The position numbers and the translations under genes were made by a program. DNA of 64,000 bases from Candidatus Omnitrophota bacterium (GTDB lineage Bacteria; Omnitrophota; Gorgyraeia; Gygaellales; Profunditerraquicolaceae): the NCBI GenBank assembly GCA_003598025.1, contig QZKH01000009.1:64896-128895 (forward strand). Reading direction: 5' to 3'. Shown piece by piece: positions 993-59,798 of this stretch. Under the pieces are notes generated by a model that was not told the origin of the DNA, ran no database searches, and saw only the letters and a program-made list of their open reading frames with translations. Each line of letters begins with the position of its first letter. Within the stretch, counting starts at the first letter, position 1.

Positions 993-1093
993 ACTACGAT
1001 TATTTTGCATTTTGTATAGGTTTCTCTAATACAACTGGTTAATGCCTGTCCGCGGCATTTTTTGATTGAAAACAGGTTTTACCCGGTATATAA

Positions 1094-2932
1094 TTAACCA
1101 TCAATTATTGCCCTGTCGTCTAATTCGAGCACTATAAATTTGATACAGCGAAATCCCGCCGTTTTCTGGCGGGACGGTAGGACTTGAAAATTGAAATGCT
1201 TTGCCCTGTCGTCTAATCGGTAGGACTTCAGATTCTGGATCTGACTATCTTGGTTCGAGTCCAAGCGGGGCAGCCATTGTTGACAACTATCCGAAACTCC
1301 GGATAGTGATGCAGTGGGAACAAGCGCCTTACAGTCTTCTGTAGGGCGCTTTTCCTTTGTAGAGGCTATTTCGCTAGGGAGGATGCCTTCAAGCGGCTCT
1401 TCGATATACATATTGATTACCAGCCTGTCGCTATAGACGTAAATGTCCTTGATCAGGGCATGTATAAGGCTTTTCTGGGCTTCCGGAGGGGCGTCTTCAA
1501 GGTGCTGTATGGCAAAGTTCATGCTGCGGTATACGAGCTCGCCGGAACAGGCGTTTATGCTGGCAACTCTCTTTTGCGCCTGCAGCTTGTCTATTTCGTC
1601 TTCCAGTTTTGCAATCTCCATTTCCAACTCATTCATTTTGTCTTTATAAGTGGAGCCTTTGGTGACTGTGTTGCCCATGGCTAATTCCAGCAGTTTATTG
1701 GCTTGGAAGCGGAAGCCGTTTAGCTTTGTCTCTCTTTCTTTTAAGTCGGTCTCTATCTTTTCAAGCTTTGCCTGCGACTCAAGCATGGCGTCTCCCAGGG
1801 CCTTTATGATAATGCCCTTGTCCTCAGATGCCCGCCTAAAATAGTCGATTATAGCTTTGTCAAAAGTAGTTGCGGAGATGCGTGTTGCTTTGCATCCCAG
1901 AGCCTGCTTGGAGCGGCTGCACTCATAATAAAAAAACTTTCTTCTGTCTCTACCGCCTGAAAAATTGCAGACCATATGGCTTCCGCAGTCGCCGCATCGG
2001 AGAATACCGGCGAGGAGGTATTCATAGAATCTTTCTTTCTGCACAAAGTTGTGGCCGGGAAGCTTGGCGCTCAATATTTTGTTGGCCCGCTCCCAGAGCT
2101 TCTCATCGACAATCGCCGGGTGATTGCCTTTGTGGTATTCTCCGCTGTATTGAATATAGCCTTTGTAAAAAGGATTTTTTAATATCCTTGAAATAACCTG
2201 CCTGCGCCATTCCTTGCCGTTTAGAGTTTTTAGCCCGCGCCTGTGAAGCTCAAGGCCTACCTGCGTAAGCGACCGGTTATCCGCGGCCATCTCCCAGATG
2301 ATTTTAAGATGCGTAGTTATTTTTTCATCAGGAACAATTTTATGCGGCTGGCGGCCGTTAGGAAGCGGCTCTCCGTCTGGTATAAGCTTATATCCATAAG
2401 GCAGCATCCCGCCGACCCATTTGCCCTGGCGCACTCTGGCAATAGCGGATGCTTTCACGCGCTCGCCGGTGAGCTCCCGCTCAAAGGCTGACAAAATCCC
2501 AAGTATGCCAATTACTACTCTACCTATGGCGGTTGAGCTGTCCAAGTTTTCTCTTACCGAGACGAAATCGATTTCCTTTTCTCTGAATAGATCAATAAGC
2601 CAGTAGAGGTCCCGGGTATTGCGGGTCAAGCGGTCAAGGCGGAAGAAGATTATTCCGTCAAATGGGGCGGTTTCTCTACGCACGCGGTCGATAATCATCT
2701 GGATGCCGGGCCGGTTGAGATCCTTGCCGGAATATCCGTCATCGTCTATTCGGCCTTTTTTGCCTATCTTGGCAAGGTCATATCCAAAAGCGTCCAGCAG
2801 ATTCTTGCAGTGATAGGCCTGGGAATCCAGGGTGGTAAAATCTCCCTGGGCCTGGTCATCAGTAGAGCAGCGGGTATAGATTACATAGCGTTTTTTGTTA
2901 TTTGCATTATTTGTTTTGGCATTCATAATCAT
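1094..2932 (-). CDS. large serine recombinase (resolvase catalytic + recombinase + zinc-ribbon domains); 3' end disrupted because the last 57 codons are antisense of tRNA-Gln and the duplicate fragment
   Basis: N-terminus MIMNAKTNNANNKKRYVIYTRCSTDDQAQGD... (catalytic Ser in YTRCST). About 70% identical to the second recombinase at 23430-25529. Start chosen by alignment with the paralog (MIMKAK). Codons WLP = revcomp of tRNA 3' end GGGCAGCCA (1268-1276). Confidence 0.8.
   Translation of the reverse strand: MIMNAKTNNANNKKRYVIYTRCSTDDQAQGDFTTLDSQAYHCKNLLDAFGYDLAKIGKKGRIDDDGYSGKDLNRPGIQMIIDRVRRETAPFDGIIFFRLDRLTRNTRDLYWLIDLFREKEIDFVSVRENLDSSTAIGRVVIGILGILSAFERELTGERVKASAIARVRQGKWVGGMLPYGYKLIPDGEPLPNGRQPHKIVPDEKITTHLKIIWEMAADNRSLTQVGLELHRRGLKTLNGKEWRRQVISRILKNPFYKGYIQYSGEYHKGNHPAIVDEKLWERANKILSAKLPGHNFVQKERFYEYLLAGILRCGDCGSHMVCNFSGGRDRRKFFYYECSRSKQALGCKATRISATTFDKAIIDYFRRASEDKGIIIKALGDAMLESQAKLEKIETDLKERETKLNGFRFQANKLLELAMGNTVTKGSTYKDKMNELEMEIAKLEDEIDKLQAQKRVASINACSGELVYRSMNFAIQHLEDAPPEAQKSLIHALIKDIYVYSDRLVINMYIEEPLEGILPSEIASTKEKRPTEDCKALVPTASLSGVSDSCQQWLPRLDSNQDSQIQNLKSYRLDDRAKHFNFQVLPSRQKTAGFRCIKFIVLELDDRAIIDG
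1108..1185 (+). repeat. interrupted partial duplicate of the tRNA-Gln 5' half (pseudo-tRNA / att scar)
   Basis: 1108-1124 is identical to tRNA-Gln 1201-1217 (TTGCCCTGTCGTCTAAT). 1175-1185 (CGGTAGGACTT) matches tRNA 1218-1228. The two are separated by a 50-nt insert containing a CCCGCC-N7-GGCGGG hairpin. No T-arm or acceptor 3' strand. Confidence 0.45.
1202..1276 (+). tRNA. tRNA-Gln (anticodon CUG)
   Basis: Manual cloverleaf: acceptor TGCCCTG/CGGGGCA, D-stem GTCT/GGAC, anticodon stem TCAGA/TCTGA, loop TTCTGGA (U33, CTG, G37), T-arm CTTGG-TTCGAGT-CCAAG, discriminator G, encoded CCA 1274-1276. Confidence 0.85.
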
Positions 2933-2963
2933 AGAATTCCTACCACATTTTAATGCAGGCATA

Positions 2964-2994
2964 CGCCAGGCAGAAGATCTCCTTCTGCCTGGCG
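2964..2994. promoter_or_regulatory. perfect 13-bp inverted repeat (CGCCAGGCAGAAG-atctc-CTTCTGCCTGGCG) immediately upstream of recombinase start
   Basis: Read directly; lies between the recombinase start (2932) and the next minus-strand ORF. Confidence 0.4.
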
Positions 2995-3006
2995 GCGCTA
3001 AAACAG

Positions 3007-3330
3007 TTATGCCTGGGCCTTCTGCTTTTTGCCTTTTCCCCAGCCAGCCTTCCATCTGGCCACTGCCCCGGAGACGATCTCGTTGATGCGCTCCTGGGTT
3101 GTGCCTTCCTTGAGGATCTCAACAAGCTCTTCTTTGTTGATTACCCGGAAGTTTTTGATGCCGCGCTCTTTGGCTTTAAGCATCAGCTCATGGCGCGACG
3201 ACTCTTTGGCGGCTGATTTGCCGGCTTCAGGCTCTTTTGTAGCTTCTACCGGCGCGCTGGCTTTTTCAACGAACGGCATGTTCTTTGATGAGGACGTCTT
3301 TAAGAAATTTGCCGAGCTTGGCATGGCCAT
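3007..3330 (-). CDS. small Rho_N/SAP-like nucleic-acid-binding protein (start uncertain)
   Basis: C-terminal half HELMLKAKERGIKNFRVINKEELVEILKEG matches the Rho N-terminal domain consensus (L..LK..A.E.GI.N...M.K.ELI..IL). No SD seen at either candidate start. Overlaps antisense with the 5' end of the rSAM remnant. Confidence 0.4.
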   Translation of the reverse strand: MAMPSSANFLKTSSSKNMPFVEKASAPVEATKEPEAGKSAAKESSRHELMLKAKERGIKNFRVINKEELVEILKEGTTQERINEIVSGAVARWKAGWGKGKKQKAQA

Positions 3331-5668: not shown

Positions 5669-5688
5669 CTAAAAGGGGAGGTGAAAAC

Positions 5689-5799
5689 ATGAAGGTGCTT
5701 ATAGCTTTTACTCTGGGGAATATCGTCGGCGGATTGGGAATGTTTTTCTATCTTTGGCTGAAAGGCAAGGTGCAGGATGGCGGAAAGCGAAAAATTTAG
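5689..5799 (+). CDS. 36-aa single-TM peptide (MKVLIAFTLGNIVGGLGMFFYLWLKGKVQDGGKRKI)
   Basis: SD AAAGGGGAGGTG; conserved paralog at 27522-27632; overlaps the next gene by 23 nt in both copies. Confidence 0.45.
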   Translation: MKVLIAFTLGNIVGGLGMFFYLWLKGKVQDGGKRKI

Positions 5800-6109
5800 C
5801 CTACTTAAATTCGCTGAGAGCTTTTTTCAGTTTTTGCCGTGGGTTAAGACTTTACGCTACGCAGCCGGTATTGCGCTGATAAGTTTTGTGGGCCTTACGA
5901 TTTATCGGGCATTCTTTATGCCTACGCAGACTACCAAGCAGGTCACTCATATTATTGCTCAGCCTGGCGCCCAGGTGACGGTAGATCAGAAAAAAGAGGA
6001 AAAGAAATCTAAGATTGAAGTCAGACCGTTCGCAGAGGGATATGGTTTTGCTGAATCTGACGACCGCAAGGGTGTAGGCGCTAAGGCCGGTATAAGGGTA
6101 GATTTCTAA
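5777..6109 (+). CDS. 110-aa membrane protein, paralog of 27610-27939
   Basis: MAESEKFSLLKFAESFFQFLPWVKTLRYAAGIALI... versus MVENERFSLLKFAGSFFQFLPWVKTLRYAAGIALI... Confidence 0.5.
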   Translation: MAESEKFSLLKFAESFFQFLPWVKTLRYAAGIALISFVGLTIYRAFFMPTQTTKQVTHIIAQPGAQVTVDQKKEEKKSKIEVRPFAEGYGFAESDDRKGVGAKAGIRVDF

Positions 6110-15670: not shown

Positions 15671-17023
15671 ATGAATAAGAAAATTATTAAAAAAGCAGAA
15701 GAACTGATAGCGCAAAGAAAACTTTCCGAATTAAAGGAGATTATTCCGCAGCATCCGGAAGACATAGCGTATTTTATCTCTCATCTTTTTAATCCATCCT
15801 GGAAAATGATCGTATTCCGCATGATTCCTCCCGAGACCGCCGTGGAAGTCTTTATGAGTTTTCCTGTAGAGGAGCAGGAAAAAATGCTCGAGGATTTAAC
15901 CACATCTGAAATCAGGACAATCTTAAATGAAATGTCGGTTGACGACAGGACTGGATTATTTGAAGAAATGCCCGCGGAGCTGGTTAAAAAATTTATGAGC
16001 TATCTTTATTATGAGGAAAGAGAGATAGCACAGCAGATACTTAATTATCCCGATAATTCCGTGGGAAGGCTGATGACTCCGGACTTTGTGCAGCTTTATG
16101 AAGACATGACTGTTGAAGCCGCCCTGGAGCACATAAAACAAATCGGCTTAAAAACAGAAACAATTTATCACGCTTATGTATTAAACGCCGAAAGGAAATT
16201 AATAGGCGTGGTATCGCTTAAAAAAATAGTTTTAGCCCAGGCTGGCGCGCTGATAAAAGACATTATGTTTAGAGATGTGAAGAAGATTAACGTATACCGG
16301 GATCAAGAAGAGGCTTTAGGCATTTTTAAAAAATATGACCTTTTGGCCCTGCCGGTTATAGATAATAACGAGAAGTTATTAGGGATAATAACCTTTGATG
16401 ATCTGGTAGATGTTATTGATGAGGAGGCCACAGAAGACTTCCAAAGAATTGCCGCAGTTGTCCCTATAGAAGAGCCTTATCTTGAGACGGGCCTATTTAA
16501 TATACTTTGGAAAAGAAGTTTTTGGCTTATCTTATTGGTGATTTTGGGATCTGCGTCGGGCTTTATTCTTCAAAAGTTCCAGCTGACTATACAAAAATGG
16601 ATTGCATTAAGTTTTTTTCTCCCCATGCTTGTTGATACAGCCGGTAACGCAGGCACCCAATCCTCGACGATAGTTATCAGGAGTTTGGCGGTGGGAGAGA
16701 TAAAAATAAACGATTTTCTCAGGGTAGCTTTAAGAGAGTCAATGCTGGGGATTTTATTAGGCGGCATTTTGGCCTTAGCGTGCATATTAAGGGTGTTTTT
16801 TCAAGAATATAACTGGGGTTTGAGCTTTTCTGTGGGGCTTTCTATGGGATTAACGGTTATCATTTCCGCAGTGATAGGCGCCAGCCTCCCCATTATATTA
16901 AAAAAGATTAAATTAGACCCCGCTCTGATGAGCGGGCCTTTACTTACAACAATAATTGATATCTTGGGCATTACAATATATTTCTGGATTGCAAATAAGT
17001 TCTTGTTTTTGCTGAGAATCTAA
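15671..17023 (+). CDS. mgtE: magnesium transporter MgtE
   Basis: MgtE_N domain, CBS pair, C-terminal 5-TM MgtE domain (PMLVDTAGNAGTQS). Confidence 0.85.
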   Translation: MNKKIIKKAEELIAQRKLSELKEIIPQHPEDIAYFISHLFNPSWKMIVFRMIPPETAVEVFMSFPVEEQEKMLEDLTTSEIRTILNEMSVDDRTGLFEEMPAELVKKFMSYLYYEEREIAQQILNYPDNSVGRLMTPDFVQLYEDMTVEAALEHIKQIGLKTETIYHAYVLNAERKLIGVVSLKKIVLAQAGALIKDIMFRDVKKINVYRDQEEALGIFKKYDLLALPVIDNNEKLLGIITFDDLVDVIDEEATEDFQRIAAVVPIEEPYLETGLFNILWKRSFWLILLVILGSASGFILQKFQLTIQKWIALSFFLPMLVDTAGNAGTQSSTIVIRSLAVGEIKINDFLRVALRESMLGILLGGILALACILRVFFQEYNWGLSFSVGLSMGLTVIISAVIGASLPIILKKIKLDPALMSGPLLTTIIDILGITIYFWIANKFLFLLRI

Positions 17024-17838: not shown

Positions 17839-17956
17839 AAATATTAAAGCAGTATGGGCAAATAACCCGCGGCCTGTATTTTAGGCCTTATAATAGGCTG
17901 TCTACGCAATAGCAGAGTTGCCATTATCCGGGTTTAAATGTAAAGGAGCGGAGGCC

Positions 17957-18418
17957 ATGGCAATAACCGTATTTGTTAGTTTTAACCACGCTGACCAAAA
18001 ACAGCTTGAAGCTTTTGATTTGCTTAAAAATAAGACGAAACATGTTTTTGAATCTCATGACCATTTATGCAAAGAAGTATCGCCGGACGGCAGCGAAAAA
18101 TTAATTATATGCCAGATAAACGAAGGCCGTTCAAAACCAATGCGCGAAGAAATTATCAAGAAATTCGAGCAGTGTTCTAAGCTGGTAGTTTTAATGGGGA
18201 ATGAAACCTATAAAGACGCATGGGTTGAATGGGAAGTCAACAATTTTTATAAGATGAAAGATGCGCTTTTGCCTGGTAAAGCGTGGATGAATATTCGTGG
18301 TATGTTTCTTGAAGGCTGCGAAAAAGCGACAGCTCCTAAGGCTTTGGAATGCAGGTCGACGCAACGCTTGGCTTGGGACCCCGAGGCTTTAGAAAAATGG
18401 ATAGACGAATTAAGTTAA
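17957..18418 (+). CDS. TIR-like domain protein (DUF1863 / Thoeris ThsB-like)
   Basis: MAITVFVSFNHADQK... resembles the ThsB N-terminus (MAKRVFFSFHYQD, recalled from memory). Later KLVVLMGNETYKDAWVEWEV resembles ThsB VLIGSQTFNRRWVRYEI. SD AAGGAGCGGAGG precedes ATG 17957. Confidence 0.6.
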   Translation: MAITVFVSFNHADQKQLEAFDLLKNKTKHVFESHDHLCKEVSPDGSEKLIICQINEGRSKPMREEIIKKFEQCSKLVVLMGNETYKDAWVEWEVNNFYKMKDALLPGKAWMNIRGMFLEGCEKATAPKALECRSTQRLAWDPEALEKWIDELS

Positions 18419-18443: not shown

Positions 18444-19193
18444 ATGCGGAAAGGGTATTTTTATATAGCAAATCAAACCCGCAGCGGAAAGCGCATAGGG
18501 TTGGTTTTTATCCTTAATATTGGGAATGGGAAGCTTCTAAAGCTCTCTACTTTAAAATATATTTGTAATGATAACAGCATTCTCATTATTTTTACGCCTG
18601 TATCAAATAGCGAATCCGGTATTTTAACAAAACATTTGAAACGGAGCAGTATTTTTCATAGAACATTTGACAGCCGAATTTGTAAATTACTCGGGGAGAT
18701 TATTTCCGGCATGTTGAAGCCGGATATCGGCGCAGATCTTGTTATTAGAGAGCTTACCGAAAGGCAAAATAAGGACTATAAATATTTTGAATACAAATGC
18801 TATGATAAAATATATATACCCGGCACGATTCCAATGAAACGGAGTAATGAAATTGAAGTAAACAACCACAAAATAAAACTCGGAGACTCTATGTTTAAAT
18901 TATTCCTGCGCCTTGTGCTAGAATTAAAAAAGAAAAAGGAGGGTTGGGTTCATAGGCATAGCCTGGGTTCAGACAATATCATTATGGATGTCGAAAAATT
19001 CCAGATTTACAGCAATCTTAGGACGGCTTTGCAAGGAAGTCTATTAGATAAGGACGGCCAGAAGTTTATAGAGAACAACGGCTCAAAGCAGTACCGGATA
19101 TCGCTCCACCCAGATTTTATTACCTACGACAGAGAAAAACTCCTCAAGCACCCCGATAGCAGTATTCAGAAGCTCGCTAAAAAACTAACCTAA
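18444..19193 (+). CDS. uncharacterised 249-aa protein adjacent to the TIR-like gene
   Basis: No recognisable motif; AT-rich; 25-nt gap after the TIR gene suggests an operon. Confidence 0.4.
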   Translation: MRKGYFYIANQTRSGKRIGLVFILNIGNGKLLKLSTLKYICNDNSILIIFTPVSNSESGILTKHLKRSSIFHRTFDSRICKLLGEIISGMLKPDIGADLVIRELTERQNKDYKYFEYKCYDKIYIPGTIPMKRSNEIEVNNHKIKLGDSMFKLFLRLVLELKKKKEGWVHRHSLGSDNIIMDVEKFQIYSNLRTALQGSLLDKDGQKFIENNGSKQYRISLHPDFITYDREKLLKHPDSSIQKLAKKLT

Positions 19194-22458: not shown

Positions 22459-23013
22459 ATGGGGAAAAGAAATAATAAGGTAATAGATATATTCGGCGCG
22501 ACTAATTCCCTTAAGGTGCTTTCGTATCTTGCCCAGGACCCGAGTAAGGAATTCTTAGCCAGCGAAATTCAGAAGACTACCCTTGCCAGCAGAGCAGGGG
22601 TGTATTTCGCTTTAAAAGAGCTTATGCGGCAGGGTCTGGTTTCGCAAGAGAGAAGAGGCAAGGTTATCTTTTACCGCATTGTCTATGATGACGCAGCTAT
22701 AAAGCAGTTTAAGATATTGAAGAATGTGTTTTCCTTACGCCCTATCGTAGCCAAGCTTAAACCTTTCTCGCGTAAGATTGTGCTTTACGGCAGCTATAGC
22801 CGCGGTGAGAATGATCCTGCCAGCGACATAGACCTTTTTATACTCTCAAAGGATCCAGAGGCAACAAAAGACGCCCTTTCTTCCCTTAAAACTAAGCAAA
22901 AACTCCAGACTGTAATTAAGACTGCAACTGAAATGGCCAGCTTTAAAGAAAGCGAAAAAGTCTTCATGCAGGAAGTAGAACGTGGCATAGTGCTCTGGGA
23001 GGAGAAGGGATGA
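22459..23013 (+). CDS. wHTH + minimal nucleotidyltransferase (MNT) antitoxin-like protein
   Basis: LYGSYSRGENDPASDIDLFIL (GS..RGE...SDID NTase motif). Confidence 0.7.
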   Translation: MGKRNNKVIDIFGATNSLKVLSYLAQDPSKEFLASEIQKTTLASRAGVYFALKELMRQGLVSQERRGKVIFYRIVYDDAAIKQFKILKNVFSLRPIVAKLKPFSRKIVLYGSYSRGENDPASDIDLFILSKDPEATKDALSSLKTKQKLQTVIKTATEMASFKESEKVFMQEVERGIVLWEEKG

Positions 23014-23444
23014 CCATAGAATATGATGATTGCCTAAAGAGAGGCAAGATTAAGCCGTTTTCACGCGGGCCTGCGTTGGCAGCAAAGGAAATAGAAGCAG
23101 CAGAAGCAGACTTAAGTCGGGCGCATAAAACCTACAGCGAAACCGACTATAAATGGGCAACTATTCAGACCTATTATTCGATGTTTCACAGCGCAAGGGC
23201 CTTGTTATACGCCAAAAGCCTGCGGGAACACAGCCATTATTGCCTTGTCGCTGCCATTAAGACTTTGTACGTTGAGACGAAGGTTATCCCGGTATATATC
23301 CTTGAAGGTTTCCAGCAGGCCAAAACTTTAAGGGAAGAGGCTGATTATTATAACCGTTGGTCCCAAGCAGGCTGCGAAAAACTTATAAAGTTGGCCGAAG
23401 AGTTCTTAGGAATAGGTAGGAATACAATTTTACCTAGGCAATAA
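23010..23444 (+). CDS. HEPN-domain toxin-like protein
   Basis: Overlaps the MNT gene by 4 nt; SLREHSHY and REEADYYNR (Rx4-6H HEPN motifs). Confidence 0.65.
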   Translation: MTIEYDDCLKRGKIKPFSRGPALAAKEIEAAEADLSRAHKTYSETDYKWATIQTYYSMFHSARALLYAKSLREHSHYCLVAAIKTLYVETKVIPVYILEGFQQAKTLREEADYYNRWSQAGCEKLIKLAEEFLGIGRNTILPRQ

Positions 23445-25529
23445 TAGCTGGTTTATCATATCCCGGCGTTCTTGAATGGTTTTTAGGCGGGAAATGTTCA
23501 AAAGGCGTCTGCCGGTGAAGATTCTTAATGTCTCTTGATTGCCGCATTGCTTCATATTTTCAACAAATTCCGGAGGTAGCTTGTTGACTATTTTCAACAA
23601 GTGGGCTAATTTAGACTCTGATATATTTAGTTCTCTACAGGTTTTTGCCCAGGTTATTTTGGTCTGGCCGCTGTTAATGAAGGCCTTAATCTTTAGGGCC
23701 TCTACTATGGTGTTTGGGTAGATTCGGGGCTTGCGGACGGGTACCGGCGGCAGAGGATCTACTAAACTAAGCAAAATCCGCTTGCTTCTCCGGATATCCA
23801 TCTTCACAACCAATTGAACCACTTGGGGTTCTGCGGTGCGGCGGAAGACAACATTGGGCAGCCACTCTGGACGAATATTCGAACCACCAGCAGTTGGCAC
23901 CAGTGCCCTACAGTGATCCTGTGGGGCATTGCTGTTTTTAGGGGCATTTCCGGGGTTATTGTGGGTGTTTTCGGGTAGGTGGCAGGCAATCTCTTCGTAA
24001 GGGCTGCCTACATACATGCGGAATTCCACACGGTCATCTAGGACTGTTATGGATTTGATTAATAGCTGCAGCAGGGCTTTCTGGTTTTCCGGAGTGGCCT
24101 TATCAAGGTACTGAATAGCAAATTTAAAGTTAGAGTATAAAAACTCGCTGGAGTTAGCGGTCATTTGAGCGACTTTTCTTTGGGCTTCAAGCTTGGATAA
24201 TTTCTCTTGAAGCGCGAAGATCTCATTATCAAGGGCATCCATCTTGGTTTTGTAAGTGGCGCCTTTTGAGATAGCGCCTTCAATCGCAAGGGAGAGCAGC
24301 TTGTCTGCTTTTTCCCTTGCGATTTTTAGTTTCTCCTCGGCCTGCTTGATTTCTTTCTGCACTTTACCAAGTTTGTCCTTGGCATCAATTGCCGCGTCAC
24401 CCACGGCCTTTACGATAATGTCCTGGTTCTGTGAGGCAACTCTAAAGAAATCAATTACAGCTTGGTCAAGCTGCGTAGCCGGTAGATTAGGGACATCACA
24501 TCCTAATCTTTGTAATGACCGGCTGCAGGCGTAGTAAAAAAACTTCCTGCTCCTGCCATTAGCAAAATAGGATATGTAGTGGCTTCCGCACTTTCCACAC
24601 CGAAGTATCCCATTCAATAAGTAAACATACTCCTTAGGTTTTTTAGTGAAGTAGTGCTTTGGCGTGTTGCCGGTAAGAATTTTATTGGCTTTCTCCCAGA
24701 GGCCGTCGTCAATAAGCGGAGGGTGGTTACCTTTGTGCAGTTCACCGGCGTAGCGGATCATGCCTTTGTAGAAAGGGCTTTTTAGTATGGCAGCAATGCT
24801 TTGCTTGCGCCAGCTTTTTCCTTTGTAGGTTGGGACTTCCAGCTTAACCAATGTATTGCCGATTTCAGTCAACGACTTATTCTCAGCAGCCATTTGCCAG
24901 ATGGCTCTTAACTTCGGGCCTATTTCTTCATTGATTACAACCTTGTGAGGCTGCCTGCCGTTTGGCAGCATGGGTCCGTCATTAATAAGTTTATAACCTA
25001 AAGGAAGCGCTCCGCCAGTCCACTTGCCTTGGCGGGCCCGGGCAATGCAAGAGGCTTTAACGCGTTCACCGGTGAGTTCGCGTTCAAAGGCAGAAAGGAT
25101 CCCGAGTATGCCAATTACTACTCTGCCTATAGCAGTTGAGCTGTCAAGATTCTCGCGTACGGATACAAAAGCAATTTCTTTGGAGTTGAATAGATCAATA
25201 AGCCAGTAGAGGTCGCGGGTATTGCGAGTCAAGCGGTCAAGCCGTAAGAAGATTAAGCCGTCAAAGGATTTCTTGCCGCTATGAATATCGTTAAGCACTG
25301 ACTGTATGCCTGGCCGATTCAAGTCTTTTCCGGAGTAGCCGTCATCATAGACAACACCGGATTTTCCGAAAGCAGCCATCTCATAGCCAAAGGCGTCAAT
25401 CATATTCTTGCAGTGGTGCGCCTGAGCATCAAGAGTGGTATAGTCGCCCTGGGCCTGGTCATCAGTGGAGCAGCGAGTATAGATGATGTAGCGTTTCTTT
25501 TTGTTATCTGGTTTTGCTTTCATAATCAT
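23430..25529 (-). CDS. large serine recombinase, full length, with C-terminal HTH extension
   Basis: MIMKAKPDNKKKRYIIYTRCSTDDQAQGD...; the internal codons EWLP are encoded by revcomp of GGGCAGCCA at 23856-23864, the same 9-mer as the tRNA-Gln 3' end. Confidence 0.85.
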   Translation of the reverse strand: MIMKAKPDNKKKRYIIYTRCSTDDQAQGDYTTLDAQAHHCKNMIDAFGYEMAAFGKSGVVYDDGYSGKDLNRPGIQSVLNDIHSGKKSFDGLIFLRLDRLTRNTRDLYWLIDLFNSKEIAFVSVRENLDSSTAIGRVVIGILGILSAFERELTGERVKASCIARARQGKWTGGALPLGYKLINDGPMLPNGRQPHKVVINEEIGPKLRAIWQMAAENKSLTEIGNTLVKLEVPTYKGKSWRKQSIAAILKSPFYKGMIRYAGELHKGNHPPLIDDGLWEKANKILTGNTPKHYFTKKPKEYVYLLNGILRCGKCGSHYISYFANGRSRKFFYYACSRSLQRLGCDVPNLPATQLDQAVIDFFRVASQNQDIIVKAVGDAAIDAKDKLGKVQKEIKQAEEKLKIAREKADKLLSLAIEGAISKGATYKTKMDALDNEIFALQEKLSKLEAQRKVAQMTANSSEFLYSNFKFAIQYLDKATPENQKALLQLLIKSITVLDDRVEFRMYVGSPYEEIACHLPENTHNNPGNAPKNSNAPQDHCRALVPTAGGSNIRPEWLPNVVFRRTAEPQVVQLVVKMDIRRSKRILLSLVDPLPPVPVRKPRIYPNTIVEALKIKAFINSGQTKITWAKTCRELNISESKLAHLLKIVNKLPPEFVENMKQCGNQETLRIFTGRRLLNISRLKTIQERRDMINQLLLPR

Positions 25530-27294: not shown

Positions 27295-27506
27295 ATGGGG
27301 AAACCAAAATTAAGTTAAAAGCCGGGTTTACCGGCGCAATTATCACCTTGATTCTTACCCTTGCTGGAATTGCCTTTGGCTACGGCCAGTTAAACAACCG
27401 AGTAGAGGCTATGGAAAAAAGAATAAGCTGCATTGAGGAAATCAGGGAGCGCTTGGTCAGGGTTGAGACCTTGGTTGAGCGGATAGACAGGAAAATCGGA
27501 AACTAA
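27291..27506 (+). CDS. small TM + coiled-coil protein (holin-like architecture)
   Basis: TGAIITLILTLAGIAFGYG followed by a coiled coil. Confidence 0.4.
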   Translation: MNGETKIKLKAGFTGAIITLILTLAGIAFGYGQLNNRVEAMEKRISCIEEIRERLVRVETLVERIDRKIGN

Positions 27507-27521
27507 AGGGAGGTGGATAAT

Positions 27522-27632
27522 ATGAAGGTGTTGATAGCTTTTACACTTGGCAATATCGTCGGAGGACTGGGGATGTTTTTCTATCTGTGGCTGAAAGGTA
27601 AGGTGCAGGATGGTGGAAAACGAAAGATTTAG
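27522..27632 (+). CDS. 36-aa single-TM peptide, paralog of 5689-5799
   Basis: MKVLIAFTLGNIVGGLGMFFYLWLKGKVQDGGKRKI (35/36 aa identical). Confidence 0.45.
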   Translation: MKVLIAFTLGNIVGGLGMFFYLWLKGKVQDGGKRKI

Positions 27633-27939
27633 CCTGCTTAAATTCGCCGGAAGCTTCTTTCAGTTTTTGCCATGGGTTAAGACCTTGCGCTACGCGGCCG
27701 GTATTGCGCTTATTGGCTTAGTGGGCCTGACGATTTATAGGGCGTTCTTTATGCCTACGAATAAGCAGATTACTCAGATTGTAGCCCAGCCCGGGTCCCA
27801 GGTTACAGTGGTTGAGGAAAAGAAGAAAGAAGCAAAGAAACTTTTTAGGCCCCAGCCCTTTATTGAAGGTTATGGCTTTGTCGAGTCAGATGGAAGAAAT
27901 GGGTTAGGGGGTAGATTAGGAATAAGAATTGAGTTCTAA
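27610..27939 (+). CDS. 109-aa membrane protein, paralog of 5777-6109
   Basis: See paralog; ~85% nt identity over the module. Confidence 0.5.
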   Translation: MVENERFSLLKFAGSFFQFLPWVKTLRYAAGIALIGLVGLTIYRAFFMPTNKQITQIVAQPGSQVTVVEEKKKEAKKLFRPQPFIEGYGFVESDGRNGLGGRLGIRIEF

Positions 27940-45036: not shown

Positions 45037-45093
45037 TTGACATTTGCACTAAATGTTCATAAAATGTGAACTAATCGTTCACGCATCGTGAAC
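45037..45093 (+). promoter_or_regulatory. promoter (TTGACA) with palindrome GTTCAC-gcatc-GTGAAC (candidate operator of the second MNT/HEPN pair)
   Basis: Read directly. Confidence 0.4.
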
Positions 45094-45111
45094 ACTTATC
45101 CGGAGGCGATA

Positions 45112-45651
45112 ATGGAAAGCATTTTTTCTACAAAGGAACGATTAAAAATCCTAAAAGCAGTTATTTTTAATAAAGCGCCTATCAGCGTTAATGTCATTGC
45201 CGCTCAGCTTAAACTAAGCAAGGGGCTGGTCTCTAAGTACTTTGAAGTTCTGCTAAAAGAAGGCATTGCTAAGAAGTCAAATGGTAAATACCTTATAGTT
45301 GACTCTTCCTTTACAAAGGCAGCCAAGATTTTATTAAATATAATCGGCATTGATGCGGAAATTTTCAAGAAGTTTGACTTTGTGGAGGCTGTTGGCCTTT
45401 ATGGTAGTTGCGCTAAAGGGGAGAACACAGATGATTCTGATGTGGATCTCTGGATAAAGATTAAAAGCGTAAGTGATGAGAAAGCCGCCTCTTTAACTAC
45501 TATAATGAGCAAGAAAATCAAGAATGTTAAGCCGTTATTCTTAACTACCGAGAAGATTGAGAAGATGAAAAAGGATGACATGCTTTTCTATCATTCCTTG
45601 TCATTCGGCTCAATCGTTCTCTACGGAGAAAATAATGCCATTCAATTATAA
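45112..45651 (+). CDS. wHTH + minimal nucleotidyltransferase (MNT) antitoxin-like protein (paralog of 22459)
   Basis: LYGSCAKGENTDDSDVDLWI; SD GGAGG before ATG 45112. Confidence 0.7.
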   Translation: MESIFSTKERLKILKAVIFNKAPISVNVIAAQLKLSKGLVSKYFEVLLKEGIAKKSNGKYLIVDSSFTKAAKILLNIIGIDAEIFKKFDFVEAVGLYGSCAKGENTDDSDVDLWIKIKSVSDEKAASLTTIMSKKIKNVKPLFLTTEKIEKMKKDDMLFYHSLSFGSIVLYGENNAIQL

Positions 45652-46081
45652 CGATTGCATGAGGGAAGGGTTACTGAGGAAAATCCCGCCATCAAAAGAT
45701 AAGGCTGTCCAGTCATTAAAGAAAGCGCAACAGTGGTTAAAAGAAGCGGAGAATTCTCTGGAAGGGAATGCATTCAACTCATCAATTTTGGCTTCTTATA
45801 TGGTAATGTTTCATGCGGCTAGGACTATCCTGTTTTTTGATGGCTTCCGGGAAAAGAGCCATGCCTGCGTAGCAAGATATCTTGAAGAGAAATATGTTAA
45901 AACTGGCAAGCTGGATAAGAAGTGGGTTGAACTATTGGATCACAGCCGGGAAATTAGGCACGATGACCAGTATGACCTTAGTTTTTTCTCAACCAAAGAA
46001 GAAGCGGAGAATGCCTTGAAGTCCGCTAATGACTTCTGGGGTGCTATAGACGGTTTATTTAAGGCGATCTCTTCTAAGTAG
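45635..46081 (+). CDS. HEPN-domain toxin-like protein (paralog of 23010)
   Basis: YNDCMREGL..., FREKSHAC, SREIRHDDQY; 17-nt overlap with the MNT gene. Confidence 0.65.
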   Translation: MPFNYNDCMREGLLRKIPPSKDKAVQSLKKAQQWLKEAENSLEGNAFNSSILASYMVMFHAARTILFFDGFREKSHACVARYLEEKYVKTGKLDKKWVELLDHSREIRHDDQYDLSFFSTKEEAENALKSANDFWGAIDGLFKAISSK

Positions 46082-46109: not shown

Positions 46110-46535
46110 CTAAGCCTTTGGAAATAGGCTTTCAAGCGCGTTTCGCCGTTCTTTTTCGGTTTTGAGGCGGGATATCCTTAAAAGCCGTTTGCCGTTGAAT
46201 ATCTTTAGCTTGTCTTGATCCTGGCAGGATTTTATGGTTTCAATGAAGTCCTGGGGTAGGGTGTTAACTATCTTTAAGAGGTGGGCTACCTTGGAGTCTG
46301 AAATTTGCAACTCTTGGCTGGCTCTTGCCCAGGTCATCCTGGTAGGGCTGTTTTCAATAAAGGATTGCAGTTTGAGGCCCTCATAGATGATATTTTGGTA
46401 GATTCTCTTGGGCCGTGCCGGAGGCGCTTCAAACGGCTTGATTAAAGACAATAAAGTGCCCTTTTTGCGGCTTTTATAGAACCTAAGAAGCAGGATAGCC
46501 TCTGTGGTTCGAAAACCGTCTATTGTGGGCAGTAC
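46110..46535 (-). pseudogene. C-terminal fragment (HTH extension, ~140 codons) of a large serine recombinase, beginning exactly at the GGGCAG core
   Basis: VLP-TIDGFRTTEA...LLSLIKP...PRIYQNIIYEGLKL...ISDSKVAHLLKIVNTLPQDFIE... aligns with Rec2 WLP-NVVFRRTAEP...LLSLVDP...PRIYPNTIVEALKI...ISESKLAHLLKIVNKLPPEFVE. No homology upstream of VLP (an in-frame TAA lies 13 codons before). Confidence 0.65.
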
Positions 46536-46706
46536 TTCGACTCGGCCTTCGGCCTCGCTCAGTACGAGTAGTTTATTAGAAAAGTCCGTATTGGGTTGCT
46601 TTTATTTATTACTTGGACGAGAACCAAAGTGGTGCGGGGTGAGACCGTCCCCGCGCTTTCGCGGTGACAGGGAGCTAAGGTAACGACGAATCGAAGGAAA
46701 ACATTC

Positions 46707-46753: not shown

Positions 46754-46837
46754 GCGCGGGTGGTGGAATGGCAGACACGCTACTTTGAGGGGGTAGTGGG
46801 GCAACCCGTGAGAGTTCAACTCTCTCCCCGCGCACCA
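46754..46837 (+). tRNA. tRNA-Leu (anticodon GAG), type II with long variable arm
   Basis: Acceptor GCGCGGG/CCCGCGC, anticodon stem CTACT/GGTAG, loop TTGAGGG, variable arm TGGGGCAACCCGTG, T-arm GAGAG-TTCAACT-CTCTC, encoded CCA. Confidence 0.85.
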
Positions 46838-59599: not shown

Positions 59600-59798
59600 A
59601 AGACGGCAGCGAAAACTCCGGACAAAGATTCGGAGTCCCGACATTTCGTCGGGAGGCAATTCCATTATTGGAGGTAATGGATGCGCAAAGCCACGGGACG
59701 ATGCTCGTCACAAATCAGTCTTTATCCAGTTTTTCGTTTTGGGTCGCAAACGAGAGCGTTAGCCGGGTTACCGAAAGCCGTATGGTTTTCGGTTTTTT
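59600..59798 (+). ncRNA. structured 5' leader, candidate c-di-GMP-I (GEMM)-like riboswitch with intrinsic terminator
   Basis: GGCAATTCC-ATTATTGG...TAATGG-ATGCGCAAAGCCACGGGACG resembles the GEMM core (GGCAAACC...GACGCAAAGCC.CGGG, recalled from memory). Terminator CCGAAA-gccgtatgg-TTTCGG+T7 at 59771-59798. Leader precedes the flp pilin genes. Confidence 0.4.

Follow-up and report, generated by a model that had tools for sequence, protein, structure and literature searches.

Two tandem cargo islands in an Omnitrophota bacterium, located at a tRNA-Gln gene, and the probable integration-dependent splitting of their large serine recombinase gene

We analyzed a 64,000-nucleotide stretch (here called the window) of contig QZKH01000009.1, which comes from a metagenome-assembled genome of Candidatus Omnitrophota. 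Positions 1274-46532 of the window are made up of two ~22.6-kb cargo islands, E1 and E2, which very probably integrated in tandem at the 3' end of a tRNA-Gln gene by means of their own large serine recombinase (LSR). In the mechanism that we propose, an attP of ~50 bp would lie within the integrase gene, where a linker connects the canonical LSR core to a C-terminal domain (CTD) of ~140 aa. The conserved Trp codon (TGG) complements the CCA of the tRNA, and the Leu-Pro codons next to it copy the tRNA acceptor end. With the attP within the integrase's own gene, each integration would therefore cut this gene in two. Strand exchange, at CA or AG within a shared GGGCAG, would join the tRNA to the N-terminal part (N-part) of the integrase gene (attL) and leave the CTD-coding piece at the far end of the island (attR). 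The island would also give the tRNA a CCA and a new intrinsic terminator, located antisense in the integrase linker. Integration of E2 first, and then of E1 into the tRNA-proximal attL, would generate a full-length hybrid integrase at the E1/E2 junction.

The integrase gene and its attachment sites

The tRNA-Gln(CTG) gene is at 1202-1276 on the plus strand (ARAGORN; Rfam, 57.4 bits). A minus-strand open reading frame (ORF) at 1094-3055, for which the ATG at 2932 (MIMNAKTNN) is a plausible translation start, encodes Resolvase, Recombinase, and Zn_ribbon_recom domains (Pfam). This ORF runs antisense across the tRNA: ...CKALVPTASLSGVSDSCQQWLP is followed by a tail, RLDSNQDSQIQNLKSYRLDDRA..., that is the reverse complement of tRNA-Gln. 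The initial annotation, made from the sequence without database searches, had stated that the ORF does not end at a natural C terminus, and this was borne out. The tail (1094-1273, minus strand) is a non-native read-through consisting of antisense tRNA-Gln and, beyond it, a partial 5' copy of the tRNA, in which 1108-1124 is identical to 1201-1217. The WLP codons (TGG-CTG-CCC) are the reverse complement of GGGCAGCCA at the tRNA 3' end (1268-1276), and the same 9-mer recurs at 23856-23864, within the EWLP codons of a 699-aa integrase copy, in both cases as annotated. The 9-mer alone is weak evidence (3 occurrences found versus 0.5 expected; 3 of 100 shuffles reached 3). The integrase N-part of E1 (N1; 1274-2932, minus strand) comprises 553 codons that end at the Trp and cover the catalytic and recombinase domains, the zinc ribbon with its coiled coil, and the linker (Pfam). 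It shares 88% nucleotide identity with the integrase of another locus (L021), which likewise adjoins a tRNA-Gln gene.

The decisive test of the split was the reconstitution of the gene. GGGCAG is present again at 46527-46532, and joining 46532 to 1274 restores an uninterrupted, in-frame ORF of 693 aa with its stop at 46110. The product is colinear with the 699-aa copy over the full length (56% identity over 702 columns), including the last 140 residues, and such agreement is beyond chance. Therefore, 1268-1273 and 46527-46532 are taken as the common GGGCAG cores of attL and attR, respectively, and integration would have cut the gene in two. The attL proposed in the initial annotation, with its core inside the integrase ORF, thus acquires a matching attR with the displaced CTD (46110-46532), and the junction predicted there (1273/46533) agrees with the joining that restores the ORF. 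The orphan CTD (46110-46526, minus strand) has a putative ParB/KorB-like helix-turn-helix, for which the closest known systems are the DNA-binding domains of ParB/Spo0J, KorB, SopB, and VirB, and is in frame with the Leu-Pro codons of the core. The split falls after residue 553 of 693, downstream of all LSR domains, and leaves the catalytic core intact. Past the core, the next three bases read CCA in attL and TAC in attR; therefore, crossover would have occurred within GGGCAG, and the island would provide the CCA of the tRNA (1274-1276, the complement of the Trp codon). The host-derived left arm of attB would then be tRNA-Gln positions 1-73 (1202-1273).

The catalytic domain PF00239 was detected in both integrase copies (E values of 1.9e-29 and 8.5e-31), and both contain YTRCSTDDQ, which matches the serine motif Y-x-R-x-S-T-x-x-Q and is invariant in alignment A1. 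PF07508 and PF13408 were also present, and weak coiled-coil-type matches at residues 377-457 (Lebercilin and FliJ) fit the coiled-coil insert. Pfam found only serine recombinase domains and no tyrosine recombinase domain. No close integrase relative was found among deposited phages, in which the best identity was ≤31% and no match covered the CTD.

To the right of the attR core, 46533-46575 (TACTTCGACTCGGCC...CCTCGCTCAGTAC) would be the B' arm, i.e., the original trailer of tRNA-Gln. One metagenome scan for the reconstructed attB gave a single match, a 1.1-kb contig (L054; 1-1114), in which a tRNA-Gln(CTG) gene ending in ...GCGGGGCAG, with no encoded CCA, is followed by TACTTCGACTCGGCC...CCTCGCTCAGTAC as at position 46533 and beyond in the window. 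L054 thus supports the B' arm assignment. The unoccupied tRNA-Gln envisaged in the initial annotation was in this way found, with the same trailer, in another organism and not as an empty site of the same species. L054 also encodes two small GIY-YIG-type ORFs, each located after a repeated leader (CTTCGACTCG...CTGAGCGAG); one follows a 22-nt 5' fragment of tRNA-Gln and the other follows the complete tRNA-Gln. The trailer common to L054 and the window (46533-46575) may be part of a cassette that is repeated or mobile. Host DNA continues beyond the B' arm, with tRNA-Leu(gag) at 46754-46837 as its first feature (an ARAGORN call that is absent from the Rfam list at the gathering threshold). The host flank at 46.9-54.6 kb is syntenic at 44 to 77% amino acid identity in three relatives (L059, L062, and L072), where it lies next to an orphan CTD.

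The sequence motifs of the half-sites were then compared. The P' half-site of E1 (CCATTGTTGACAACTATCCGAAAC; 1274-1298) reads GGTTCG-N15-TGG on the other strand, which is the consensus of 29 sites. This arm is conserved across clades with different tRNA targets and encodes G-S-P-E-R-Q-Q-W. The B arm is the tRNA itself, with the T-loop GGTTCGA. On the CTD side, the P arm has CGAAC at offset 24-28 from TGG in 17 of 26 sites and CG.A (offsets 24, 25, and 27) in every one of the 26; the antisense tRNA has CGAAC at offset 19-23. Therefore, the motif is 5 bp further from the center in both P-type half-sites than in the B half-site. For the LI integrase, the zinc-ribbon motif is 5 bp closer to the center in attB than in attP, and this arrangement defines LSR sites (PMC3783163). 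At the sequence level, the att sites described here have the canonical 5-bp shift. The symmetry center of attP corresponds to tRNA position 72, which makes CA or AG, within the common core (1271-1273; tRNA positions 71-73), the probable crossover dinucleotide. The B' arms are unrelated among hosts of closely related CTD clades, and many of them look like native tRNA terminators.

A predicted intrinsic terminator for the tRNA (1322-1361, plus strand), consisting of a 13-bp GC-rich stem and a T-rich tail, is located 46 nt past tRNA-Gln, antisense to the conserved linker codons KRPTEDCKAL. A second terminator-like hairpin with a T tract is present in the linker of the 699-aa copy (23897-23943, plus strand; dG, -23.9). 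Hairpins of -19 to -34 kcal/mol were found 13 to 48 nt past the CCA at all 26 sites examined; the 8-nt tail contains at least four T residues at 24 of these sites and three T residues at the other two. The hairpins use several unrelated stem sequences. Among control windows elsewhere in the same genes, only 4 of 72 reached -19, and 2 of those also had a T-rich tail. Given a tRNA-sense hairpin at every site, the island would therefore replace the displaced native terminator of the tRNA. As predicted from these features, ~50 codons of the integrase linker are multiply coded, specifying protein, both attP arms, the tRNA CCA, and a putative terminator on the opposite strand.

Upstream of the tRNA-Gln region, a consensus scan identified a promoter-like site (TTGAAA-17-TATAAT, 11/12; 1066-1094, plus strand). 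The partial 5' copy of tRNA-Gln (1108-1185, plus strand) sits between this site and the real tRNA-Gln; it is composed of 17 nt, an insert of ~50 nt with the hairpin CCCGCC...GGCGGG, and then GGTAGGACTT again. L054 likewise has a 5' tRNA-Gln fragment upstream of its tRNA-Gln.

Recurrence of the split across the family

Among the 120 best homologues of the 699-aa protein, most are ~540 to 630 aa long and cover ~72 to 82% of the query, with homology that stops at the conserved Trp, while ~10 reach into the CTD. Most of the tails beyond the Trp are antisense tRNA 3' ends (WLPRMDSNH..., WLPGRDSNPRHGG, WRRGRDSNPG, and WLPREDSNLGPGG). They vary with the adjacent tRNA and end at arbitrary stops, 2 to >100 codons past the Trp. 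At two NCBI/ENA loci (L001 and L002), the integrase gene overlaps an antisense tRNA-Asn or tRNA-Ser. Of 46 IMG/VR loci, about three quarters have an integrase match that stops at residue ~556-560; 45 of the loci were scanned, and 27 of these have an antisense tRNA where the integrase gene ends (Gln, Asn, Ser [three anticodons], Arg, His, and Glu). The tRNA CCA coincides with the Trp codon TGG in phase 0 at 27 of 29 loci (i.e., the 27 IMG/VR loci plus L001 and L002). The attL interpretation is thus also backed by the same split at the Trp codon in dozens of contigs and at six kinds of tRNA.

A 145-aa CTD query gave 134 matches, nearly all of which were stand-alone ORFs of 110 to 235 aa annotated as hypothetical. 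An exhaustive search with a CTD profile gave 135 clusters at 50% identity, almost all of 40 to 220 aa, from which no intact-to-split ratio can be read because intact genes cluster with truncated representatives. In species-representative genomes, a contiguous N-part was present at only 1 of 37 CTD loci. Aligned sites from representative genomes (n = 24, including 22 attR junctions) become homologous precisely at CTGCCC; at the attR junctions, the place of the Trp codon is variable (TGG, AAA, GCG, TAC, and others) and the sequence upstream is unrelated host DNA. Equivalent attL or attR junctions were found in the closed genome NZ_CP019384.1 as well as in over 50 independent contigs. Bins with such elements are assigned to Omnitrophota, and some are labelled Planctomycetes, Elusimicrobia, Auribacterota, or Deltaproteobacteria.

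Several of these loci have features of their own. Many of the IMG/VR contigs (L008-L052) end ~60 to 150 bp past the Trp codon, which may be due to prophage trimming at the tRNA or to assembly breaks arising from mixed integrated and excised forms. In L002 (11636-12817), a tyrosine integrase gene is located directly 5' of the tRNA-Ser whose other side abuts the serine integrase gene; this tRNA appears to be used by two unrelated integrases from opposite sides. L072 (10001-11175) contains an orphan CTD, a single gene, and tRNA-Gln within ~1.1 kb in total and looks like an almost completely decayed island. L057 and L085 each contain two CTD copies, 2 to 3 kb apart.

The tandem islands, the junction gene, and integrase activity

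The two halves of the integrated region (1274-23860 and 23865-46532) are colinear at both ends, with the order integrase N-part, 82%-identical segment, MNT/HEPN pair, and integrase C-terminal piece in each. We delimited E1 as 1274-23861 (~22.6 kb) and E2 as 23862-46532 (~22.7 kb). The 82%-identical segment (330 bp; 5673-6002 versus 27505-27828) is far more similar than the rest of the islands, and it extends over the start of a 110-aa ORF (5777-6109 and 27610-27939), which is conserved but without a match in the databases.

The 699-aa integrase gene (23430-25529, minus strand) sits on the E1/E2 junction and contains an attP-like site. It had been annotated as a full-length paralog, and an intact copy does exist; the gene is not simply a second one and is most likely a hybrid, composed of the N-part of E2 (N2; 23865-25529) and the CTD of E1 (23430-23855), on either side of the island-island core GGGCAGCCA (23856-23864). 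A protein that is 100% identical to it (P0001) is recorded on contigs in both NCBI and JGI. Two contigs from two other JGI samples (L093 and L094) are 99.6% identical to window positions 23873-23174, i.e., the right end of E1; at TGG, where this identity ends, they switch to a different, decayed integrase remnant that is followed by E2-like DNA (~80% identity). At L008, an N2-like integrase gene (85% nucleotide identity) adjoins tRNA-Gln, and its identity to the window ends at 23856. The combinations of N-parts and CTDs in the databases are shuffled and uninformative regarding native pairing, a question on which L093 and L008 told more. Further arrays that include an integrase gene in the middle are found in IMG/VR contig 3300014206_004182 and in Ca. 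Velamenicoccus archaeovorus. In the simplest history, E2 would have integrated first and E1 would then have entered the tRNA-proximal attL.

The principal alternative, which we consider rather unlikely, is a cointegrate or nested insertion in which the 699-aa gene is the native, never-split integrase of the second element. The two elements would have been joined by homologous recombination at the 330-bp segment and then integrated via the other attP, and the native pairs would be N1 with the piece at 46110 and N2 with the piece at 23430. The islands are equally colinear under this model, and in one database protein (P0002) the N-part is N2-like and the CTD is of the type found at 23430-23855. 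Against it, the N-part and CTD types are shuffled across databases. It would also avoid the use of attL as a target, which classical LSRs do not make (PMC3783163); against this, the B' arms are unrelated among hosts, and attL is thus plausibly usable as a target. Homologous recombination would be poorly served by an identity of 82% over 330 bp, and in L093 and L094 the right end of E1 (99.6% identity) continues, from the TGG on, as a different and decayed integrase remnant. Successive integration of E2 and E1 therefore remains the history that we prefer.

Regarding the activity of the integrase after the split, we compared the ratios of nonsynonymous to synonymous substitution rates (dN/dS). 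These were 0.07 to 0.11 for integrated N-parts and 0.10 to 0.23 for the CTDs compared, which were mostly orphan fragments, showing at the level of sequence comparison that both halves are under purifying selection. The truncated integrase probably remains active, and loss of the CTD may change its activity or regulation, by analogy with IntP of Mx8. We tentatively suggest, as one possibility with limited odds in its favor, that the split is a built-in state switch, in which the excised circle alone would encode the full-length enzyme, including the putatively ParB-like DNA-binding domain, and the integrated island alone a core-only enzyme. Integration would then alter the directionality, target choice, stability, or autoregulation of the recombinase, without or beside a separate directionality factor. 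The zinc-ribbon domain of the integrase would read the universal T-loop motif of tRNAs and tolerate almost any B' arm, which would explain both the spread over many tRNA species and the formation of tandem arrays via attL.

The split could instead be a dead end, resembling the suicidal integration of SSV, with an inactive truncated enzyme, locked-in islands, and arrays that are fossils. Decayed remnants do exist (a partial CTD in L018, a CTD with one gene in L072, and the integrase remnant in L093), and most database copies are integrated. We nevertheless judge this explanation to be unlikely: the N-part retains every canonical LSR domain, and dN/dS is 0.07 to 0.23 for the two halves. Moreover, another sample has the right end of E1 at 99.6% identity beside a different neighbor, which implies recent movement, and E1 cargo is 98% identical in a distant relative.

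Several points weigh against tandem integration by a self-splitting LSR. The data are metagenome assemblies and one closed genome, i.e., sequence evidence only. The metagenome scan for attB recovered no empty site of the same species, L054 being a different organism, and no demonstrable circle was found among the contigs with intact integrase genes (L004, L005/L006, L007, and L022), whose contexts are ambiguous. The attB dyad center in the window is 1 bp off the attP center and thus does not fix the crossover dinucleotide. Classical LSRs would not be expected to integrate into attL. No candidate recombination directionality factor was found in the islands, in which the small conserved ORFs at 3007-3330, 5777-6109, and 27610-27939 have no informative PHROGs or Pfam matches. 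Finally, GroES/GroEL and the Bat operon on E2 could be essential host genes, arguing against a freely mobile island. The related proposal that E2 is ordinary chromosome, based on its GroESL and Bat genes, is weakened rather than eliminated by L072, a relative with the same flank that lacks these genes at the corresponding locus.

Two further explanations have very little probability. A conserved functional architecture of overlapping integrase and tRNA genes, which the initial annotation had named as the outcome that would speak against an attL, might be suggested by the presence of such fusions in very many homologues and by purifying selection on the N-part, but it is contradicted by tails that track tRNA identity (six types) and end at arbitrary stops, by the missing CTD found in frame at the other island end, by the orphan CTDs of other genomes, and by the existence of full-length integrase genes. 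A chimeric contig, joined at repeated tRNA or integrase sequences during assembly or binning, is conceivable for a metagenome-assembled genome with many related contigs that end near the junction, but it is hardly compatible with the 100%-identical junction gene on NCBI and JGI contigs, the equivalent junctions in the independent contigs and closed genome listed above, the reading frame kept across the inferred crossover, and the syntenic host flank in relatives.

The cargo of both islands consists of cellular genes (Pfam). E1 encodes a Na+/H+ exchanger, rubrerythrin, hemerythrin, a two-component system, PhoU, GreA-like proteins, MgtE, ThsB-TIR, and two MFS transporters; E2 encodes three Hsp20 proteins, GroES/GroEL, PilZ, MoxR/DUF58/BatA-D, and TPR proteins. 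The MNT/HEPN pairs (22459-23444 in E1 and 45088-46081 in E2) adjoin the CTD ends and, together with a ThsB-like TIR protein (17918-18418), are defense or addiction-type genes. Protein domain searches of 1274-46532 revealed no virion structural or packaging genes and no other integrase, and the region does not qualify as a prophage; relatives of the integrase do occur in elements that resemble prophages and have portal and GpA terminase genes. The E1 cargo at 14.7-19.2 kb is colinear, at 80 to 98% amino acid identity, with the closed genome of Ca. Velamenicoccus archaeovorus LiM (NZ_CP019384.1), where it lies directly beyond an intact integrase gene (~1885411-1887498); an orphan CTD (~1839165) is located 48 kb from that integrase. 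MgtE (15671-17023) shares 98.4% amino acid identity with its counterpart in Ca. Velamenicoccus archaeovorus LiM, whereas the integrases share only ~60%, a contrast that suggests recent exchange of cargo modules between islands. A 249-aa protein without a Pfam match (18444-19193) has relatives at 79 to 84% identity ~5 to 10 kb beyond the CTD in L056, L060, L066, and L074 and may be an island backbone gene. In the host DNA, a cyclic di-GMP-I riboswitch was detected upstream of small ORFs (59645-59775; Rfam, 37.1 bits against a gathering threshold of 35 bits).

Significance and relation to known integration systems

If this interpretation holds, a large and coherent LSR clade targets the 3' ends of at least six tRNA species, and mimicry of the T-loop combined with the canonical 5-bp shift offers a sequence-level rationale for tRNA targeting. 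Hundreds of Omnitrophota "hypothetical proteins" of 110 to 200 aa would be explained as orphan integrase C termini and hundreds of integrases of ~540 to 630 aa as genes truncated by integration; both would mark island ends precisely. Integrases that read a conserved tRNA sequence and have little need of the other attB arm could serve genome engineering. Recombinases that interrupt the gene encoding them have been described in a review as exclusive to archaea (PMC8371274); the present family is bacterial and belongs to the other recombinase superfamily.

The integrase shares with known LSRs (A118/LI, phiC31, and Bxb1) the Resolvase, Recombinase, and zinc-ribbon plus coiled-coil domains, as well as short pseudo-palindromic att sites in which the outer motif is 5 bp further out in the P-type arms (PMC3783163). 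The nearest LSR arrangement is that of phiFC1, in which the attP core is located 19 nt past the integrase stop codon (AF124258.1). Here, in contrast, the crossover point would be ~140 codons inside the ORF, integration is directed at a tRNA 3' end, and an extra, putatively ParB-like CTD is detached by integration. Serine integrases have long been said not to target tRNA genes (PMC4383910). In the TIGER paper of 2020, t(m)RNA genes were the location of only 14 of the 297 S-Int candidates, and proof was called for (PMC7192596), and a large LSR survey made no mention of tRNA (PMC10083194).

The initial annotation knew an attachment site within the integrase gene from SSV-type tyrosine integrases and regarded it as undescribed for LSRs. 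The latter view stands: a full-text literature search, incomplete in coverage, found no published description of a self-splitting intragenic attP in serine recombinases. The former was too narrow, since the arrangement also exists in Mx8, whose target is a tRNA-Asp gene. IntP of Mx8 is bacterial, and its attP lies inside the int coding sequence (PMC6070905 and PMC4383910); integration gives int a new 3' end, and the enzyme stays active with changed properties (PMC6070905). The likeness to the present integrase, with attP in the 3' part of the gene, a replaced C terminus, and an intact catalytic core, is one of analogy and not of membership: IntP is a tyrosine integrase of an unrelated family with other chemistry.

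The integrase genes of SSV1, pTN3, and pT26-2 carry their own site and are fragmented upon integration into tRNA genes (PMC8371274), as in the islands described here. These SSV-type enzymes are tyrosine recombinases of archaea, unlike the bacterial serine recombinase of the islands, and the split of their genes is considered to prevent excision; here, by contrast, the complete catalytic and DNA-binding core remains undivided. In the BPs-type mycobacteriophages, which show integration-dependent immunity (Broussard et al., 2013), attP reportedly lies inside the repressor gene, and integration is said to remove a C-terminal segment and alter the behavior of the protein; there, the split gene is that of the repressor and not of the integrase, which is reportedly a tyrosine recombinase. 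The system described here combines the chemistry and site logic of LSRs with an intragenic attP, previously known only for tyrosine integrases.

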